Notes under the pieces: model-generated | What the model saw: only the letters and a program-made list of their open reading frames with translations | Databases searched by the model: none | What the model was told of the DNA's origin: nothing | Position numbers and translations under genes: made by a program | Shown: one piece after another, positions 14,178 to 45,811 of the stretch | Layout of the letters: each line of letters opens with the position of its first letter | Numbering within the stretch: position 1 is the first letter of the stretch | Source of the DNA: Escherichia phage vB_EcoM_G2469 | DNA: 64,000 bases | Strand: one strand, 5' to 3' | Sequence record: MK327934.1

Positions 14178-14648
14178 TTAATCATGTTTCCACACCCCAT
14201 CGGTATTTGACCAAAGTCGCTGATTATCTGATCCTCGCCACAGCTTTTTAGTCGGAAGATTTTTCTCATACTTCCCATCAATAATAACATCAACATATTT
14301 AAGCATTTCTAGTTGTTTAATATCTTCAAACTTATATCCTGTCCACAACCAAATGCTTTTATTGGGATAAAGATTTTTTACTGTTTGAGCAATGCAATGA
14401 ATAACATCTCGGTTATCAGGATAGAGAGGGTCACCTCCGGTTATAGTTAATCCTTCTATATAATCATTATTCAAACATTCAATTAATTGTTCTAGTGTTT
14501 CACCAGTGAATGGAACACCATTTCTAGCATTCCATGTTGATTTATTATAACACCCTTCGCATTTATGCAAACAACCCGTAACGAAAAGAACGACCCTGCA
14601 TCCGGGGCCATTCACAAAATCGCAAGGATAAAATCTATCATAATTCAT
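14178..14648 (-). CDS. nrdG: anaerobic ribonucleotide reductase activating protein NrdG (radical SAM)
   Basis: 156-aa ORF, CxxxCxxC motif GCLHKCEGC; adjacent to nrdD. Confidence 0.9.
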   Translation of the reverse strand: MNYDRFYPCDFVNGPGCRVVLFVTGCLHKCEGCYNKSTWNARNGVPFTGETLEQLIECLNNDYIEGLTITGGDPLYPDNRDVIHCIAQTVKNLYPNKSIWLWTGYKFEDIKQLEMLKYVDVIIDGKYEKNLPTKKLWRGSDNQRLWSNTDGVWKHD

Positions 14649-16462
14649 TGGTGTTTAACCCTATGCATGATTTCTTTATTTTTACCGAGATTAAATCCGC
14701 GTTCGTTCGGATTTCCCAAATAACCGCATGTTCTTCTTATGGTGTTCATCTTTTTAGGATCAGTTTCTCCACAGATAGAACAAACAAATCCGTTTTCAGT
14801 AGGAGTCATTTCATGGGTACTTCCACATGTAAAACATTTATCTACTGGCATATTAACACCAAAATAATCTAAATGTTGTGCAGCATAATCCCAGACGGCC
14901 TCAAGTCCTTTTAAGTTATTTTTCATATCAGGAAGTTCAACATAAGAAATGTGACCACCTGTCGCAATGAAATGATATGGCGCTTCACGAGAAATCTTTT
15001 CAAACGGAGTAATATTTTCTTCTACTGAAACGTGGAAACTGTTAGTGTACCAGCCTTTATCGGTAACATCTTTTACACTTCCATATTTTTCTGTATCGAG
15101 TTTACAGAAGCGATAACAAAGGTTTTCAGCAGGAGTAGAATACAAACTAAAAGCAAAACCAGTTCTTTCAGACCACTGTTTAAGATGAGCATTCATTTTA
15201 GTTAAAATTTCTTGTCCAATATCACGACCGACAAGAATATTCAATTCGTGAATACCAATGTATCCTAAAGACACTGAACTTCTACCGTTTTTAAATAACT
15301 CAATTATGTCGTCATCAGGTTTAAGACGAACCCCGAATGCACCTTCTTGGTAAAGAATAGGAGCAACAGTTGCTTTAACACCCTTTAAAGAACTAATTCT
15401 ACACATCAAGGCTTCAAAACACAGATCCATTCGTTCATTAAACAATTCGATAAATTTCTGTTCATTGAACTGTGTTCCAATATAAGAATCTAATGCGATA
15501 CGAGGAAGATTCAGTGTTACAACACCAAGATTATTACGTCCATCAAGAATTTCATTACCGGTTGAATCTTTCCACACACTCAAAAAACTGCGGCAACCCA
15601 TTGGAGAAACAGGAATAGATGAGCCGGTGATAGCTTTATTGTTCTTAGCTGAAATAATATCAGGATACATTCTTTTGCTTGCACATTCTAACGCAAGTTG
15701 TTTAATATCATAGTTCGGATCATCTTTATAAAGATTAACACCTTCTTCAACAAACATAACAAGCTTAGGGAAAATAGGAGTTATCCCATCACGACCAAGA
15801 CCTTTAATACGATTTTTCAGAATTGCTTTCTGAATCATTCGTTCAGTCCAGTCAGTTCCCGTACCAAATGTAATTGTTACAAAAGGCGTTTGCCCGTTTG
15901 AACTAAAGAGAGTGTTTACTTCATATTCATAAGCTTGGAATGCATCGTATACATCTTTTTCTGTTTTAGATTGAGCATAATTCAACGCATCAGCGATTTG
16001 CCATTTTTCTGCATCCTCAATATGTTTTGCATAGGTGCGTTTAACATAAGGAGAAAGTACTTTATCTACATTAGCAAAAGTCGTTCCGCCGTATTGGTGG
16101 GAAGCAACTTGTGCAGTAATTTGTGCCATAATTGCAGTAGCAACACCAATCGATTTAGGCGTTTCAATTTGAGCATTGCCTAATTTAAATCCGTTCTCAA
16201 GCATCCCCTTTAAATCGACTAAACAGCAATTAGTAAATGGAAGAGCAGGGGAATAATCAATATCGTGGAAATGGATAATTCCGCTTTCATGTGCTTTCAT
16301 AATAAAAGACGGGACCATATTTTTGGCAATGTGTTTAGACACAATACCAGCCATAAGGTCCCGTTGAGTTGGAAAAACACGAGAATCTTTATTAGCATTC
16401 TCGTTTAAAAGGTCTTTATTAGTTTTATTAATCAGTCCTTCAATTTCTTTTTCAATTTTCAT
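14645..16462 (-). CDS. nrdD: anaerobic ribonucleoside-triphosphate reductase NrdD, uninterrupted (no intron)
   Basis: 605-aa continuous ORF ending ...RRTCGYLGNPNERGFNLGKNKEIMHRVKHQ (glycyl radical region). Confidence 0.9.
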   Translation of the reverse strand: MKIEKEIEGLINKTNKDLLNENANKDSRVFPTQRDLMAGIVSKHIAKNMVPSFIMKAHESGIIHFHDIDYSPALPFTNCCLVDLKGMLENGFKLGNAQIETPKSIGVATAIMAQITAQVASHQYGGTTFANVDKVLSPYVKRTYAKHIEDAEKWQIADALNYAQSKTEKDVYDAFQAYEYEVNTLFSSNGQTPFVTITFGTGTDWTERMIQKAILKNRIKGLGRDGITPIFPKLVMFVEEGVNLYKDDPNYDIKQLALECASKRMYPDIISAKNNKAITGSSIPVSPMGCRSFLSVWKDSTGNEILDGRNNLGVVTLNLPRIALDSYIGTQFNEQKFIELFNERMDLCFEALMCRISSLKGVKATVAPILYQEGAFGVRLKPDDDIIELFKNGRSSVSLGYIGIHELNILVGRDIGQEILTKMNAHLKQWSERTGFAFSLYSTPAENLCYRFCKLDTEKYGSVKDVTDKGWYTNSFHVSVEENITPFEKISREAPYHFIATGGHISYVELPDMKNNLKGLEAVWDYAAQHLDYFGVNMPVDKCFTCGSTHEMTPTENGFVCSICGETDPKKMNTIRRTCGYLGNPNERGFNLGKNKEIMHRVKHQ

Positions 16463-26942: not shown

Positions 26943-27155
26943 TTAATTTTGGCCAGTATTTATTTTTCGCCTTTGGACGGCCTTAACATCTGTGAGGTAT
27001 TTTTCCAGCTTGCGCTTGCGTGTATAATCAGCTTTAGAACCAGTTTGACGGATATCCTCGTTTAAATGAGAAATAGAATGTCCTAATTCTCTTCGGATTT
27101 CATCCAATTGGGTTACAGTAAGATTACGAAGTTGTCTTTCGTTTAATTGCTGCAT
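26943..27155 (-). CDS. hypothetical protein
   Basis: 70-aa ORF. Confidence 0.4.
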
Positions 27156-27182
27156 ATATACCTCTTGGTTAGATATTAGTAT

Positions 27183-27764
27183 TTATAACAACCCTGTCAA
27201 ATCGTTCCAATGCTTCCGGCATAATGACACATATCTATCGGTATCACCAATTTCAATTTGACTGCCATCTGTAATTGGAAGTCCGTCTTCCGTGACTCTA
27301 GCTACCATTGTGGCCTTTTTACCGCAATGACAGACACCTTTAAGTTCAACAAGCTTATCGGCAATAGCCATTAATGCTTGAGAACCTTCAAATAGATTAC
27401 CTTTAAAATCTGTTCGTAGTCCATATGCCATTACCGGCACATTGTATACGTCAACAATACGACTAAGTTGATACACCTTTTCAGTAGTTAAGAACTGAGC
27501 TTCGTCAACAAATACGCAGTGAATATCCTTTTGTGCTGCAGCCCATTTATAGAATTCAAAGATATCCATGTCTTTTGTAATTATATTGGCGTCCTGACGA
27601 ATACCAATACGAGAGACTATTTCACCTTTTGAATCGCGAGTATCAATAGCCGGTTTAAGAACTAATACACCCATGCCACGTTCTTTATAGTTATGTGCGG
27701 CAGTAAGTAATGAAGCAGACTTACCAGCGTTCATAGCGGCATAGGTAAAAATTAAACTAGCCAT
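27183..27764 (-). CDS. tk: thymidine kinase
   Basis: 193 aa, P-loop YAAMNAGKS, C-terminal CHCGKKA...CRKH zinc motif. Confidence 0.9.
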   Translation of the reverse strand: MASLIFTYAAMNAGKSASLLTAAHNYKERGMGVLVLKPAIDTRDSKGEIVSRIGIRQDANIITKDMDIFEFYKWAAAQKDIHCVFVDEAQFLTTEKVYQLSRIVDVYNVPVMAYGLRTDFKGNLFEGSQALMAIADKLVELKGVCHCGKKATMVARVTEDGLPITDGSQIEIGDTDRYVSLCRKHWNDLTGLL

Positions 27765-27773
27765 AAGAGTCCC

Positions 27774-27956
27774 TTATAGTGAATTCACGTAGTCAATGAG
27801 TTCTTGTTCTTTCCTGTCAAATGATTCCAACAATGCTTGATATTCTTCGTCCGTCAAAGGAGCATATTCATCATACGCATTGGTGGCTGCTTGCTCATCC
27901 AATAGGTCATGGATAAGTTCAAACAGTTTAGTTTTCTCTTCTTTAGTCAATTTCAT
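27774..27956 (-). CDS. hypothetical acidic protein
   Basis: 60-aa ORF. Confidence 0.4.
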   Translation of the reverse strand: MKLTKEEKTKLFELIHDLLDEQAATNAYDEYAPLTDEEYQALLESFDRKEQELIDYVNSL

Positions 27957-28165
27957 TTAGGTTCACCTTCTTTAACGAAATCTGGGTAAGGGTAAAATCC
28001 TGAGTAAAACCCTTCACCTTTATGATTGCTACAACCTTTGTTCGAACAGTAACACCAATAATCAAAATCACAAGCCATTTCGTCATTGCATAAAGCAAAA
28101 ACTACAGGCCATTCGCATTTTTCGCATTTAGCACCTGTAAGAATTTTTGTTTGACTCATAGCCAT
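27953..28165 (-). CDS. hypothetical Cys-rich small protein
   Basis: 70-aa ORF with about 10 Cys (CEKCEWP...CSNKGCSNHKGEGF). Confidence 0.45.
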   Translation of the reverse strand: MAMSQTKILTGAKCEKCEWPVVFALCNDEMACDFDYWCYCSNKGCSNHKGEGFYSGFYPYPDFVKEGEPK

Positions 28166-28383
28166 GTCACCTTTAAGCAGTATTCTTCTACATGCTGTTT
28201 ACGACCTTTCTTATCAATAAAGGTATATTCAACGAATGTTCCGATGTAGTCTTTATCTACATCATGTGGACTATTAATTGGACATTTGGTACGACAAATG
28301 CGTTCCCATTGACGAATAATTACTGCCTTATTCTTTGGATCGTATGGATGTGGATAATGTATATTCATAATAACGGTTCCCAA
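28156..28383 (-). CDS. hypothetical protein
   Basis: 75-aa ORF. Confidence 0.4.
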   Translation of the reverse strand: MGTVIMNIHYPHPYDPKNKAVIIRQWERICRTKCPINSPHDVDKDYIGTFVEYTFIDKKGRKQHVEEYCLKVTWL

Positions 28384-28862
28384 TCAACAATCACAATTTC
28401 TAGTTTAGTAGAATACGTATCTAAAATCTCTTCGATGACATCCCAGTTTCCACCACCAATACCTGCACCAATTCTTGGCATATAAATTACAGGCTTTATT
28501 ATCTTATTCTTTCCGAATTCATTTAATTCTATTATACAATTCATTAAAGCAGAGTACTCAAAATTAGGTCCCGGCTCAAACTGTGTATAAAGATTAAAGC
28601 AATAAGCTTTATGGGTCTTAAAATATTTTTCATAAACCGAATAAGTCCCGAGTTTAGACTTGTCTCCGAATTCGGTTTGAAGTTTATCGGCTTCTAAAAT
28701 TTTTGGATAAGCCTTTGCTAATTGGCCTGCTACACCGGCGCCCATTGTATGAAAACAATTACACCCATGAGCAATATTATTACCTTTAGAAAACAGGGCG
28801 ACAATATCGCCCTTGATATAGTTTTTAATCACTTGCTGCAAGTCCTCTATTATAAGAGTCAA
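28365..28862 (-). CDS. macro-domain-like protein (predicted ADP-ribose binding/hydrolase)
   Basis: 165 aa; motifs IAHGCNCFHTMGAGVAGQLAKAYP and MPRIGAGIGGGNWDVIEEIL resemble macro domain signatures. Confidence 0.5.
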   Translation of the reverse strand: MTLIIEDLQQVIKNYIKGDIVALFSKGNNIAHGCNCFHTMGAGVAGQLAKAYPKILEADKLQTEFGDKSKLGTYSVYEKYFKTHKAYCFNLYTQFEPGPNFEYSALMNCIIELNEFGKNKIIKPVIYMPRIGAGIGGGNWDVIEEILDTYSTKLEIVIVDWEPLL

Positions 28863-29172
28863 CTAGACGGTCCACCATAGAATTGCATGCTGCCTTATCT
28901 TTAGGTTCCGCCACCGAGCATTCTAATATTTGCCATTTTTTATAGTATCTTTTAATTAAGGTAGACGCCTTGAACCTACTAGACGCCCCATCTTTTTCTC
29001 CGTCTTTATACGCGTATAACAATTTTTGTGAAAAATCTACTTTACACTCTTGACTTTTACCACAATAATCAGACGCCGTTCTGTTTGTATACTCCGTTAC
29101 ATCAGTATATGTAGTATTAGCAAGAGCGTTAAATGAAACCAAGCTAACTATTAAAGCCAACATTTTGGTCAT
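28825..29172 (-). CDS. secreted Cys-containing protein, function unknown
   Basis: Signal peptide MTKMLALIVSLVSFNALA; 115 aa. Confidence 0.5.
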   Translation of the reverse strand: MTKMLALIVSLVSFNALANTTYTDVTEYTNRTASDYCGKSQECKVDFSQKLLYAYKDGEKDGASSRFKASTLIKRYYKKWQILECSVAEPKDKAACNSMVDRLVDSYNRGLAASD

Positions 29173-29711
29173 TCTTTTATTTCCAGTAGTTTATTTGATT
29201 TAAGGTAATTAGCCTTTTCTAGGACTTCAGAAGCATATTTACTTCCAGCACTTGTCTTCCATCCCGCATTATATGAGGATATAGCTTTTCTTATATCCCC
29301 GTTATGTATATTTAACCAATAAGAAAATTCGATATAAGCCCATCTGGCCGAATTAGACCGCTTAGATAGCATTTTCTTAATTTGGGCATCAGTCATATTA
29401 TAACCAAGTTGGTTAATTCTTGCCCTCATTGTTGGTAGATAATTTTGGAACATTCCATACGCATGGTGACCTTTCTTATCTTTAAGATTAATACCGGCAG
29501 ATGATTCCTGCCATAGTATTGCGGCCATTATGTATCCAAGTCCTTTCTTATGCATATTTTCATGCGTTTTAAATTTTCCGTCCTTAGAAAACTGTTCCCC
29601 AAACTGATAAGCATAATTCAAGTTATCGAGTTGGACATTACTAAAAGTATGCTCGGAGCTATGTGCTGATAACGAAAGAGCAAATAGACCAGCGAGTAGT
29701 GCTTTTCTCAT
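29169..29711 (-). CDS. secreted lytic transglycosylase-like protein (SLT domain)
   Basis: Signal peptide MRKALLAGLFALSLSAHS; motifs WQESSAG, AYGMFQ, SYNAGW. Confidence 0.55.
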   Translation of the reverse strand: MRKALLAGLFALSLSAHSSEHTFSNVQLDNLNYAYQFGEQFSKDGKFKTHENMHKKGLGYIMAAILWQESSAGINLKDKKGHHAYGMFQNYLPTMRARINQLGYNMTDAQIKKMLSKRSNSARWAYIEFSYWLNIHNGDIRKAISSYNAGWKTSAGSKYASEVLEKANYLKSNKLLEIKE

Positions 29712-29719
29712 GTTTACCT

Positions 29720-30178
29720 CTAGATTTTAATCACTGCTTTAGAAGCTTTTCCTGGTAGTCGTTTACTGTTAATAATAGCCATTCTGCATTGAAGAGTCTT
29801 CATTTTGAATGCCGGATTTTCGCGACAAACTGTAAGTCCTAACCAAAGATTTCCATCAGTTATTTCTAAACGGCCTGGGCGATATTCGACACCTTCGACA
29901 AAATCTTCATCAACATCTGGACGTGCCGGCATTGATAAAAATTCTGTAACTTCTTTAACATGATTTTTTACTTTATGAAATAATTCAAAAACGTAATTCT
30001 CATCTATTTCTCTCTGGATGGCACGATCTAAGAGATGTTGAGAATACTTGATATGAAAGCCTGGTAGTCCAAGAGACTTTGCAGCATCTTTTATACCGGC
30101 ATTTATTTTGCGGAACTCCGTTTCAAAGATTCGACGGAGTTTATTACGGCGGATAAAAACTTCCGAATTGATAGTCAT
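29720..30178 (-). CDS. regB: site-specific RNA endonuclease RegB
   Basis: From ATG 30176-30178: MTINSEVFIRRNKLRRIFETEFRKINAGIK...PGRLEITDGNLWLG..., matches T4 RegB. Confidence 0.85.
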   Translation of the reverse strand: MTINSEVFIRRNKLRRIFETEFRKINAGIKDAAKSLGLPGFHIKYSQHLLDRAIQREIDENYVFELFHKVKNHVKEVTEFLSMPARPDVDEDFVEGVEYRPGRLEITDGNLWLGLTVCRENPAFKMKTLQCRMAIINSKRLPGKASKAVIKI

Positions 30179-30185
30179 TTTGATT

Positions 30186-30235
30186 TCTCCTCTAGTTGAC
30201 AAGTCTATAGTAACACAACTAGAGGAGAAGTAAAC
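30186..30235 (-). promoter_or_regulatory. regB promoter with 13-bp inverted repeat pairing the promoter spacer with the RBS
   Basis: -35 GTTTAC (plus 30230-30235); arms 30186-30198 and 30216-30228 are perfect reverse complements; the downstream arm contains the GAGGAGA RBS. Confidence 0.5.
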
Positions 30236-30239
30236 TACT

Positions 30240-30455
30240 TTATTGATAAAATGGAGTTAAAGCCCAAGATTCTTTAGATACTATATTGGCGAAATGCCTC
30301 ATCTCTTCAATTTGGCGACGACGCTGGTCAGCATAGTCTTCTTCGCCTTCTTCCTTACAATCTTCAAGGTCTTCTTCAAGATACTTTAAGTATTCACTAC
30401 AAATTTTGTTGACCTTTTCTTGGAAGTCCAATAACCCAGTAATAGTAGAAGCCAT
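30240..30455 (-). CDS. hypothetical acidic protein
   Basis: 71-aa ORF. Confidence 0.45.
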   Translation of the reverse strand: MASTITGLLDFQEKVNKICSEYLKYLEEDLEDCKEEGEEDYADQRRRQIEEMRHFANIVSKESWALTPFYQ

Positions 30456-30721
30456 TAGTATTTTTCCTCAGGTCGAAATACTGCACGACATGCCCACATA
30501 CTGGCTTCTTTTAGATGTTGCTTAGCGTACTTAAGAGCCTGCACTGCATCCATATCTTCTTTGGTTTGTTGCTCTGTTTCATTTTCTTTCAAGATATATG
30601 CTTCTTCAATCAGAGCATCAAACAACAATCCAAGACGGACTTCAGCATCTTTAATAGCGTTCACTTTACCAATTTTATCATCGGTATGCGGCTTGTAACC
30701 TTTAATATCTTCAATCGACAT
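30455..30721 (-). CDS. hypothetical protein (start at internal Met MSIEDIKGYKP)
   Basis: ORF 30455..30889 trimmed; 88 aa. Confidence 0.4.
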   Translation of the reverse strand: MSIEDIKGYKPHTDDKIGKVNAIKDAEVRLGLLFDALIEEAYILKENETEQQTKEDMDAVQALKYAKQHLKEASMWACRAVFRPEEKY

Positions 30722-30935
30722 AAGGAATTTCCTCATCTGTGGCAAGGTCATATTCGACCAATTGGATAGGCTCATTAATACCATATCCACGTACAGTGAT
30801 ATCAGTTGTCGGATAGTTTCCAGTAATATCACCCGTTCTAAATGCTTCAATGAATGATTGCTCGCCTGAGCAACTAAACCAGGCGGCAAAACATTTTAAA
30901 ACATCTTCAGACCCTTCTATAATCAATTTAGCCAT
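30711..30935 (-). CDS. hypothetical protein
   Basis: 74-aa ORF. Confidence 0.45.
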   Translation of the reverse strand: MAKLIIEGSEDVLKCFAAWFSCSGEQSFIEAFRTGDITGNYPTTDITVRGYGINEPIQLVEYDLATDEEIPYVD

Positions 30936-31297
30936 TATAGACTCTCAGTAAAGGTGCGAGCGATAACGTCACGCTGCTGTTCCGGAGTCAGAGAGTTAAA
31001 GCGAACTGCATAACCGGATACACGGATGGTCAGCTGCGGATATTTTTCCGGATGCTTAACTGCATCTTCCAGAGTTTCACGACGCAGAACGTTAACGTTC
31101 AGGTGTTGACCACCTTCAATTTTAACTTTAGGTTGATGTTCAATTTCAATTTCACGGGCATTCAAACCGTAGAAAATTTCCGGGTCTACAATAGCGTCTT
31201 CTTTAAAAGTCTTAGAGACAATAATCCGGGCTTGAGTACCATCTTCAAAATAAATAGTGCCTTTATGTGCACCTTCAAGAATTTGATATGCTTTCAT
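30935..31297 (-). CDS. autonomous glycyl radical cofactor (GrcA/YfiD-like; T4 Y06I-type)
   Basis: 120 aa; C-terminal [62 protein letters not shown] is a glycyl radical domain, near-identical to E. coli GrcA as recalled. Confidence 0.85.
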
Positions 31298-31303
31298 ATA
31301 ACC

Positions 31304-31612
31304 TCAGTTAGAAAATAAATTTATCCAAGTTTTTTCTTTAATCAAAAATGGGTCGGAATTAAACGCCATTAAACTTTGAGTGATTAATCCCTTAAATGGC
31401 CCATCAATAAATTCCATTTTGAAATGCGGAATACTAGTCATCAACCGTGCATTAGGAGCAGTACAAAGAACCTGCTGCCCTGCGAACGGTCCTTTAGTCA
31501 AACGGTATCGTTTAGGTTTAAAATGGTAAATCTCGTAATTTTCTACAAGAGCCATTTTATTGCATACTGGGCTGTTATAACAATATTCAAAAACTTCAAT
31601 AGTGGTCATCAT
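31304..31612 (-). CDS. hypothetical protein
   Basis: 102-aa ORF. Confidence 0.45.
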   Translation of the reverse strand: MMTTIEVFEYCYNSPVCNKMALVENYEIYHFKPKRYRLTKGPFAGQQVLCTAPNARLMTSIPHFKMEFIDGPFKGLITQSLMAFNSDPFLIKEKTWINLFSN

Positions 31613-32148
31613 TGCATTCCAATCACAAAAAATTGAGGACGAGCATTACCGCCGATGCAATATTTGCTTTTGCAACAGTGTTGGACTGTTTTAATATGTA
31701 CATTGTAAATCTTATCCATATCAGGAGCTTTAATAGGCTCGTCAATTATGTACAGAATACGAGAAAGCGTTAATCCACGGAATTTAGAACCTTCATTGCC
31801 AATAAAACTACGAACAGAATCAGTAAATAAACGGAATCGAATATCGTCGCTAGAATAACGAGAAAATTCTTTTTTAATGTTGCCGGCAGAAATTTTAGCA
31901 TAAGCTGAAGTATTAGAAAGAACAATAACTGTTCCACCATCATACAGCCAATTAACAGCAAAATTAGTTACTGCGGTCGATTTACCTGATTGTCTGCCGC
32001 CGTCTAAACGAAGTGTACAGTACTGCTTGAGTACGTCTTCAAATGGTGGGACATAACCGTTCTTACAAATTTCTTCTACTCTAGCATCAGAATGGTGTGT
32101 AAAAGCATTCATCAGGGATAGATAAGGACCAGTTAAAAATGTTCTCAT
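31609..32148 (-). CDS. hypothetical P-loop protein
   Basis: 179-aa ORF with GGRQSGKST Walker A-like motif. Confidence 0.5.
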   Translation of the reverse strand: MRTFLTGPYLSLMNAFTHHSDARVEEICKNGYVPPFEDVLKQYCTLRLDGGRQSGKSTAVTNFAVNWLYDGGTVIVLSNTSAYAKISAGNIKKEFSRYSSDDIRFRLFTDSVRSFIGNEGSKFRGLTLSRILYIIDEPIKAPDMDKIYNVHIKTVQHCCKSKYCIGGNARPQFFVIGMQ

Positions 32149-32261
32149 TTAGTTTCTCTTTTAGGTTGGGCCATTCCGTGGCGCATGAATTGTCCATTTC
32201 TGTATTTACCCCTCCAAGTAATTATGAATATACTATCACAATTCTAGGAGAAAGTAAACTG

Positions 32262-32564
32262 TTATTTACCTTTAATTACTTTAGCTGCTTCGATAGCCGC
32301 TTGCTGAAGGTCATCCATAGACATACCGAATTTAGAAGCAAAGTTATCAATTTTCTTTTCGACAGCATTCAAAGGCTTGGCCTGTTTACCTTCATTAGCG
32401 CCAGGAAGAGCGAGAATACGCTCTTTGTCAATATAAAGGCTTACAAGTTTCTTACGGTCTTTATCGGACAAATCATGAAATGAATGGGCCTTTTTATTTA
32501 TAGCGGCTTCTAATTTACCTGCACTCACTCGCGCTTCAGTAATAAATTCTTGATATGTTTTCAT
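32262..32564 (-). CDS. ipII: internal protein II-like (capsid-targeting sequence MKTYQEFITEA)
   Basis: 100 aa, N-terminal CTS, basic. Confidence 0.6.
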   Translation of the reverse strand: MKTYQEFITEARVSAGKLEAAINKKAHSFHDLSDKDRKKLVSLYIDKERILALPGANEGKQAKPLNAVEKKIDNFASKFGMSMDDLQQAAIEAAKVIKGK

Positions 32565-34787: not shown

Positions 34788-35246
34788 TTATAGGAGGGTA
34801 GTGAGCACCTTATATAATGATTTGCCCATTACATATTCCCATTGAGAAGGTTTAATTAAAGCGAATGCATCAAATTCAGGAATCTGTCGTCCGTCTGGGA
34901 ATGTATGATAGGAATTACAAACACTGTTTCTGAATTGCTCGTGCTCTACAGGGATGGTATATTGGAACAGATGAATATTCTTATTGTCTGAGTAATGATG
35001 TTCACCTAGGTCTTTCAGGAAGGCAGGGTCATATTGTGTAAACCCAGTTTCTTCTTCGCATTCACGAATAGCGGCTTCAATAGGAGATTCGCCAGGTTCG
35101 ACACGGCCTTTAGGAATATCCCACCGATGAGCTAAAGAACCTTTAGGACGAGAACCAGTTACACGGCCCATGAATAATTCTTTATCTTCGGTAAGGAAAA
35201 TAATACCAGCTGATAGTTCTTTCACTTTATTTTTCTTACTCATCAT
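34788..35246 (-). CDS. nudE: Nudix hydrolase NudE
   Basis: 152 aa, Nudix box GRVEPGESPIEAAIRECEEETG. Confidence 0.85.
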   Translation of the reverse strand: MMSKKNKVKELSAGIIFLTEDKELFMGRVTGSRPKGSLAHRWDIPKGRVEPGESPIEAAIRECEEETGFTQYDPAFLKDLGEHHYSDNKNIHLFQYTIPVEHEQFRNSVCNSYHTFPDGRQIPEFDAFALIKPSQWEYVMGKSLYKVLTTLL

Positions 35247-43156: not shown

Positions 43157-43233
<77 letters not shown>

Positions 43234-43333
43234 ATGATGCGGCTTTGGGTGTTTCAGTGTTACTCGTTTGTAGGTTCTACTTTTAACCCTTATTCGAACA
43301 ACTTACCTACCTAAGAGCGTACTCACCGCGAAT

Positions 43334-43408
43334 TGGTGGCCCTGGCTGGTTTCGATCCAGCTACCTATCAGTTATGAGCTGACAGCTCTCCCATTGAGCT
43401 ACAGGGCC
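43334..43408 (-). tRNA. tRNA with CAU anticodon (Met, or Ile if C34 is modified)
   Basis: Hand fold GGCCCTG-TA-GCTC-AATGGGA-GAGC-T-GTCAG-CTCATAA-CTGAT-AGGTA-GCTGG-ATCGAAA-CCAGC-CAGGGCC-A-CCA. Confidence 0.7.

Positions 43409-45125: not shown

Positions 45126-45811
<686 letters not shown>

Follow-up and report, generated by a model that had tools for sequence, protein, structure and literature searches.

The analysed stretch of DNA (the window) comprises 64,000 nucleotides of Escherichia phage vB_EcoM_G2469 (MK327934.1). At positions 28365..28832, its minus strand carries the coding sequence of a macrodomain protein of 155 amino acids plus stop codon, the homologue of tk.4 (adfM) of phage T4; this extent is the same as in the annotations of phages JK42 and JK45. 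The gene is tightly embedded between two other T4-like genes on the same strand: upstream lies the homologue of vs, the valyl-tRNA synthetase modifier (28825..29172, minus strand, assigned from the JK42, JK45 and T4 annotations), and downstream the homologue of tk.3 (28156..28368, minus strand), identified by annotation and by its DUF7202 domain (Pfam PF23832, E = 1.6e-38). The vs stop codon overlaps the start of the tk.4 homologue, and the ATG of the tk.3 homologue overlaps the TGA stop of the tk.4 homologue (ATGA); such overlapping gene ends reflect the tight packing that is typical of T4-like early regions. Pfam searches of the flanking genes identify thymidine kinase, DUF7438, a phage zinc-binding domain and DUF7202 on the downstream side and RegB on the upstream side, and the gene order tk, tk.1-3, tk.4, vs, vs.1, regB is the same as in T4 and RB32. 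Between vs and tk is also where the macrodomain gene is found in Moonvirus, Gelderlandvirus and Roskildevirus; in Marfavirus it adjoins tk. The whole region (27000..30300) is 98-99.4% identical to many Escherichia and Shigella phages of the Tevenvirinae (NicPhage, F31, JK42, APCEc01, JS09 and others), and in these near-identical phages the gene is labelled 'macro domain-containing protein', 'T4-like phage protein with Macro domain, Poa1p_like family' or 'phosphatase'.

A promoter scan of positions 27000..32500 returned 18 promoter-like sites, with 17.6 expected from shuffled sequence, and thus no excess. An Rfam search of the whole window at gathering thresholds identified only two tRNAs (43160..43408) and no group I intron. 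Three open reading frames on the plus strand (28192..28485, 28475..28567 and 28722..28880) were dismissed as short shadow ORFs within a minus-strand gene that is under strong purifying selection. Both Vs (28825..29172, minus strand; MTKMLALIVSLVSFNALA...) and Vs.1 (29169..29711, minus strand; MRKALLAGLFALSLSAHS...) have hydrophobic, signal-peptide-like N-termini, which in the case of Vs is unexpected for a reputed modifier of a cytoplasmic synthetase; Vs.1 is labelled SLT transglycosylase in some records. Homologues to a Nudix hydrolase and to 57B are present at 34791..35243 and 45129..45581 (both minus strand) and are 97% and 100% identical to their JK45 counterparts, respectively. The 57B protein of T4 is the anti-CBASS nuclease Acb1, and the Nudix hydrolase of T4 (gene e.1) hydrolyses ADP-ribose, which a macrodomain hydrolase would release as its product. 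The anaerobic ribonucleotide reductase gene nrdD (14648..16462, minus strand) appears uninterrupted; JK45, a phage that is nearly identical elsewhere, has its nrdD split by a gene for an I-TevII-like homing endonuclease.

The initial annotation had described a protein of 165 amino acids with two glycine-rich motifs, and had left the strand unstated. Translation of the minus strand at 28365..28862 indeed yields a 165-amino acid open reading frame with IAHGCNCFHTMGAGVAGQLAKAYP (28704..28775) and MPRIGAGIGGGNWDVIEEIL (28422..28481), but this length is the result of choosing the first TTG past a stop codon (TTG at 28862) as the start. Three observations place the start further downstream, at the GTG at 28832 (28830..28832, minus strand), which overlaps the vs stop codon (GTGATTAA): the annotated coding sequence in the GenBank and RefSeq records of near-identical phages has 468 nucleotides and corresponds to 28365..28832 (in JK42, and in the JK45 RefSeq record with the same coordinates as in the window); the ATG of T4 tk.4 aligns exactly with this GTG, with an in-frame TAG directly 5' of it in T4; and the first residue that tblastn matches in T4-type phages is residue 11 of the 165-amino acid frame. 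A Shine-Dalgarno-like GAGGA (28843..28847, minus strand) is positioned 10 nucleotides 5' of the GTG and is conserved in T4, RB32 and JK42. The TTG start was therefore dropped: both motifs are there, and the macrodomain protein most likely has 155 amino acids and starts at GTG 28832..28830. The ten additional N-terminal codons (28833..28862, minus strand) lie inside the 3' end of vs and are probably not translated as part of the macrodomain protein. All residue numbers below refer to the 155-amino acid protein.

The protein is 85% identical to T4 Tk.4 (NP_049723) over 155 of 155 residues without a single gap, with only 81% identity at the DNA level. Synonymous change between the two genes is near saturation (dS about 1.3) and dN/dS is 0.067, indicating that the macrodomain gene is under strong purifying selection. 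Of 50,697 phage records searched with tblastn, 2,798 contain a homologue. From the full-length identity and the conserved genomic position, the gene is assigned as the orthologue of T4 tk.4 (adfM), in an RB69/T4-like phage of the Tevenvirinae. The gene product is made in at least one relative: the Tk.4 protein of phage T2 was detected by proteomics, and on Hfq the T2 tk.4 mRNA was captured together with ArcZ, a host sRNA, while protein levels remained unaffected (bioRxiv 10.64898/2026.06.19.733364).

Codons 7-13 of the macrodomain gene contain an 8-bp GC-rich hairpin (AGGGCGAUAUUGUCGCCCU) at 28795..28813 (minus strand), which is followed by a run of U. The hairpin is part of a stretch of 26 nucleotides (28795..28820) that is identical to T4 in a gene with otherwise nearly saturated synonymous sites; it is also identical in RB32 and KMB42, and absent from Moon, Melville, F48 and Cronus. 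The 71 nucleotides around the vs/tk.4 junction fold better than shuffled sequences (z = -2.8), and the GAGGA ribosome-binding site can pair with the U-run. A role in translational coupling or as an attenuator is conceivable for the hairpin, or it may be no more than shared junction sequence. The longest run of identity to T4 within the gene is found at its other end: 28 nucleotides at 28375..28402 (minus strand), at the 3' end and just 5' of the tk.3 start, and both junctions of the tk.4 homologue are better conserved relative to T4 than the interior of the gene. Given this similar identical run at the 3' junction, the hairpin may be conserved because junction sequence is shared or was recombined, and not for its structure.

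Sequence profiles and structure prediction agree on the fold. The protein matches the Pfam macro domain (PF01661) with 28.4 bits at a gathering cut-off of 22 and over model positions 2-117 of 118, and it matches PHROG 335 with E = 2.7e-66. When a profile of 56 homologues is compared with the PDB, the matches are BT1257 (1e-17), TARG1 (8e-17), SCO6735 (2e-14), Poa1p (1e-13) and DarG (2e-12). The AlphaFold2 model (pLDDT 95.9, pTM 0.91) is a high-confidence three-layer alpha/beta/alpha macro fold, and the structure prediction proposed in the initial annotation as a check for such a fold thus came out in its favour. The two glycine-rich motifs that had been noticed correspond to the canonical macrodomain loops, and alignments place both putative ADP-ribose-binding loops with their invariant glycines in the phage protein. 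Loop 1, the catalytic or ribose loop, is encoded at 28731..28760 (minus strand) and reads N25-C-F-H-T-M-G31-A-G33-V34, with N25, G31 and G33 invariant or nearly so; loop 2, the diphosphate-binding loop, is encoded at 28443..28478 (minus strand) and reads P119-R-I-G122-A-G124-I-G-G-G-N-W130, with P119, G122, G124 and W130 invariant. As judged from alignments and the predicted structure, the protein is a stand-alone 155-amino acid macrodomain of the ALC1-like class, which includes TARG1, DarG, Poa1p and SCO6735.

The codon of Gln84 (28581..28583, minus strand) is at the position of the catalytic lysine in TARG1 (K84) and DarG (K80), a position that in SCO6735 is taken by the essential Gln85. In a joint alignment, this position is a lysine (FPTK / LITK) in DarG, PhiKZ gp104 and TARG1, and a glutamine (LYTQ / MIGQ) in the phage protein, T4 Tk.4, BT1257 and SCO6735. 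Q84, N25, G122 and G124 are invariant in the 56 homologues, which reach down to about 40% identity, and also in the bacterial relatives that were read; they align with Q85, N27, G126 and G128 of SCO6735, and N25 aligns with the corresponding asparagine of DarG, too. SCO6735 cleaves thymidine-linked ADP-ribose from DNA and rescues cells from DarT toxicity; Gln85 and Asn27 are required, G128E reduces activity, and mutation of Q85, N27, G126 or G128 abolishes or greatly reduces the removal of thymidine-ADP-ribose from DNA (PMC9411070). Mutation of the asparagine at the position equivalent to N25 strongly reduces the activity of both SCO6735 (Asn27) and DarG, and the mechanism proposed for SCO6735 is independent of a lysine and water-mediated (PMC9411070).

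The phage protein was also considered as a candidate DarG, the antitoxin of the DarTG systems, and rejected. Its score against the NCBIfam DarG equivalog NF048014 is 32.7 bits, far below the cut-off of 250, and only the N-terminal positions 4-146 of the 338 model positions are matched; in this comparison, the C-terminal DarT-binding domain of DarG was not found in the 155-amino acid protein. There is no DarT gene beside the macrodomain gene, its neighbours being vs and the tk.3 homologue, and the catalytic lysine of the DarG macrodomain of DarTG2 (PDB 5M3I, 5M31, 7OMU; K80 in Thermus aquaticus DarG, FPTK motif) is Gln84 in the phage protein. The DarG-like phage protein gp104 of PhiKZ, which is also named AdfM, has the FPTK lysine where the protein described here has glutamine; BLASTP aligns only 23 residues between the two, and the PADLOC DarG model scores the latter with 35.7 bits and PhiKZ gp104 with 132.9 bits.

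Bacterial relatives with 35-45% identity exist in Ruegeria, Desulfobacter, Verrucomicrobia, Planctomycetes and others. They keep the signature HGCNC...YTQ...IGAGxAGGxW and are stand-alone proteins of about 150 amino acids, encoded in varied housekeeping neighbourhoods: the upstream neighbour is a class I tRNA synthetase at 8 of 77 loci, a NADAR protein at three and an NAPRTase at two. The neighbours of 80 relatives were determined rather crudely, from the longest open reading frame within 500 nucleotides on each side; among these, DarT was found neither in the PADLOC list of upstream neighbours, which is complete, nor in the top 25 families of three other neighbour summaries. This suggests an orphan macrodomain lineage, and not a DarTG2 operon, as the source of the T4-type gene. 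More tentatively, and as a possibility that we hold at less than even odds, T4-type AdfM would not be a DarG stolen from such an operon, but would belong to a separate and widespread orphan clade that carries the HGCNC...YTQ...IGAGxAGGxW signature, is common as well in bacteria lacking an adjacent DarT, and uses a lysine-independent mechanism of glutamine, asparagine and water like SCO6735. If true, phages have reached anti-DarT2 activity at least twice, with macrodomains of the T4-type and of the PhiKZ-type lineage, and the substrate range of the T4 type might be broader than thymidine-ADP-ribose or different from it, and might for example include nucleic acids with other ADP-ribose marks or small molecules derived from ADP-ribose.

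The function of the T4 orthologue is known from a genetic screen. When a T4 transposon library was grown on E. coli expressing DarTG2, tk.4 was the single significant hit, a clean deletion of tk.4 sensitised T4 to DarTG2, and the gene was renamed adfM (anti-DarT factor Macrodomain) in the corresponding preprint of November 2025 (bioRxiv 10.1101/2025.11.20.689424). DarT2 ADP-ribosylates thymidines in single-stranded DNA, and the guanosine modification made by DarT1 is handled by a different T4 protein, the NADAR protein AdfN (PMC11825919). The PhiKZ macrodomain gp104 removes the thymidine-ADP-ribose made by DarT2 in vitro (PMC13309987). The suggestion of the initial annotation that the protein removes ADP-ribose marks as a countermeasure to host defence is thus supported by the protection from DarTG2 that its 85%-identical orthologue provides (transposon screen and tk.4 deletion, in T4 only).

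In our opinion, the phage protein is probably a DNA ADP-ribosylglycohydrolase that erases DarT2 marks from phage thymidines; from the data on relatives, we infer both the hydrolysis of thymidine-ADP-ribose and that the T4 phenotype carries over to the present phage. Host DarT2 would attach ADP-ribose to thymidines of single-stranded phage DNA and block replication. The macrodomain would bind the ADP-ribose in the cleft between its two glycine-rich loops and hydrolyse the bond between ribose and thymine, restoring the DNA and releasing free ADP-ribose, and the phage would escape DarTG2. The active site would be of the SCO6735 type: Gln84, held by Asn25, would position the distal ribose, and the chemistry would be done by a water molecule and not by a lysine.

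Protection could also be achieved without any catalysis, if the protein bound DarT2 or the ADP-ribosylated DNA and served as inhibitor or reader instead of hydrolase. The macrodomain of ALC1, a non-catalytic reader of poly(ADP-ribose), likewise has a glutamine at the position equivalent to Q84. Moreover, catalytically dead SCO6735 (Q85A) still inhibits DarT efficiently through interaction (PMC9411070), and the authors of the T4 study propose that T4 Tk.4 removes ADP-ribose from DNA and say of this enzymatic removal that it 'seems likely' (bioRxiv 10.1101/2025.11.20.689424). Two further points speak against a hydrolase: the catalytic lysine of DarG and TARG1 is absent, and so are the mobile loop of SCO6735 and aligned counterparts of its Lys34 and Lys89. 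Still, protection by binding is unlikely: the very residues that SCO6735 needs for hydrolysis (Asn, Gln and two Gly) are invariant, in the 56 phage homologues as well as in those bacterial relatives that were read, as expected for an enzyme, and the C-terminal DarT-binding domain of DarG is missing. Equally improbable is an enzyme that acts on a small ADP-ribose derivative, be it as ADP-ribose-1''-phosphate phosphatase (like Poa1p), as O-acetyl-ADP-ribose deacetylase or as degrader of an immune signal: the sole phenotype known for the T4 orthologue depends on DarTG2, a system that modifies DNA, Poa1p has a serine at the key position that is an invariant glutamine in the phage family, and the 'phosphatase' labels in the databases have been inherited by homology. 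The two activities need not be exclusive.

The initial annotation had offered a further role, the editing of targets of the phage's own ADP-ribosyltransferases, and the protein could in principle reverse or tune modifications made by Alt, ModA and ModB. These enzymes make arginine-linked ADP-ribose, the cleavage of which is the job of ARH/DraG-type enzymes; macrodomains are not known to cleave this linkage. Three ADP-ribosyltransferases are encoded by T4-like phages (PMC9503650), so there would be marks to erase; however, tk.4 was significant in the T4 screen only with DarTG2 (bioRxiv 10.1101/2025.11.20.689424), and none of the bacterial relatives has a transferase as immediate neighbour, among the families listed. 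We consider this role highly improbable.

The presence of a macrodomain gene at this position was already known, as the gene is annotated in near-identical phages and its function has been assigned for the T4 orthologue; the present result is a confirmation and not a discovery. What our sequence comparisons add is the glutamine-type active site and an apparently non-DarG ancestry. The reading as an eraser of DarT2 marks is of wider relevance: DarT toxins, which ADP-ribosylate phage DNA, are widespread in bacterial defence, some phages escape them by means of macrodomain erasers, and host range on strains with DarTG2 is easier to predict for phages in which the presence or absence of a functional AdfM is known.

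Among macrodomains of known structure, the phage protein shares features with several classes. The orphan ALC1-like macrodomains SCO6735 of Streptomyces coelicolor (PDB 5E3B) and BT1257 of Bacteroides (PDB 2FG1/2AFC) have 22-29% identity to it, and SCO6735 has the same catalytic constellation of glutamine, asparagine and two glycines. There are differences, too: both proteins have an insertion of 5-6 residues, the 'mobile loop', which is absent from the phage family and seen as a gap of six columns after G88, opposite KDSKGL of BT1257. The subclass of SCO6735 and BT1257 is typified by a loop that exceeds that of DarG and TARG1 by five residues. The DNA-positioning Lys34 of SCO6735 is Ala32 in the phage protein, and Lys89 falls into the loop region that is shorter there; other lysines could take their place. 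With no mobile loop and no aligned counterparts of Lys34 and Lys89, the protein was rejected as a strict member of the SCO6735 subclass; because of the missing loop and Lys34, the phage macrodomain is best placed on a branch distinct from SCO6735. Human TARG1/OARD1 (PDB 4J5R/4J5S) has the same macro fold class, but its catalytic dyad K84/D125 is Q84/G126 in the phage protein, which is thus no TARG1-type glycohydrolase. The fold class is also common to yeast Poa1p (PDB 6LFQ), which shares the H-x-C-N-C motif. H22 aligns with H23 and T29 with S30 of Poa1p, two of the three residues (H23, S30, F152) that were probed by crystal structures of Poa1p mutants. Poa1p differs by the serine at the position of Q84 and by a longer insertion before loop 2.

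The closest counterpart is T4 Tk.4. The two proteins differ by 23 substitutions, among them residue 127 in loop 2 (glycine here, lysine in T4), and their genes by the start codon (GTG here, ATG in T4) and by the length of the overlap with vs (8 nucleotides here, 4 in T4). They are alike in the length of 155 amino acids, in the site between vs and tk.3, and in all four residues N25, Q84, G122 and G124.
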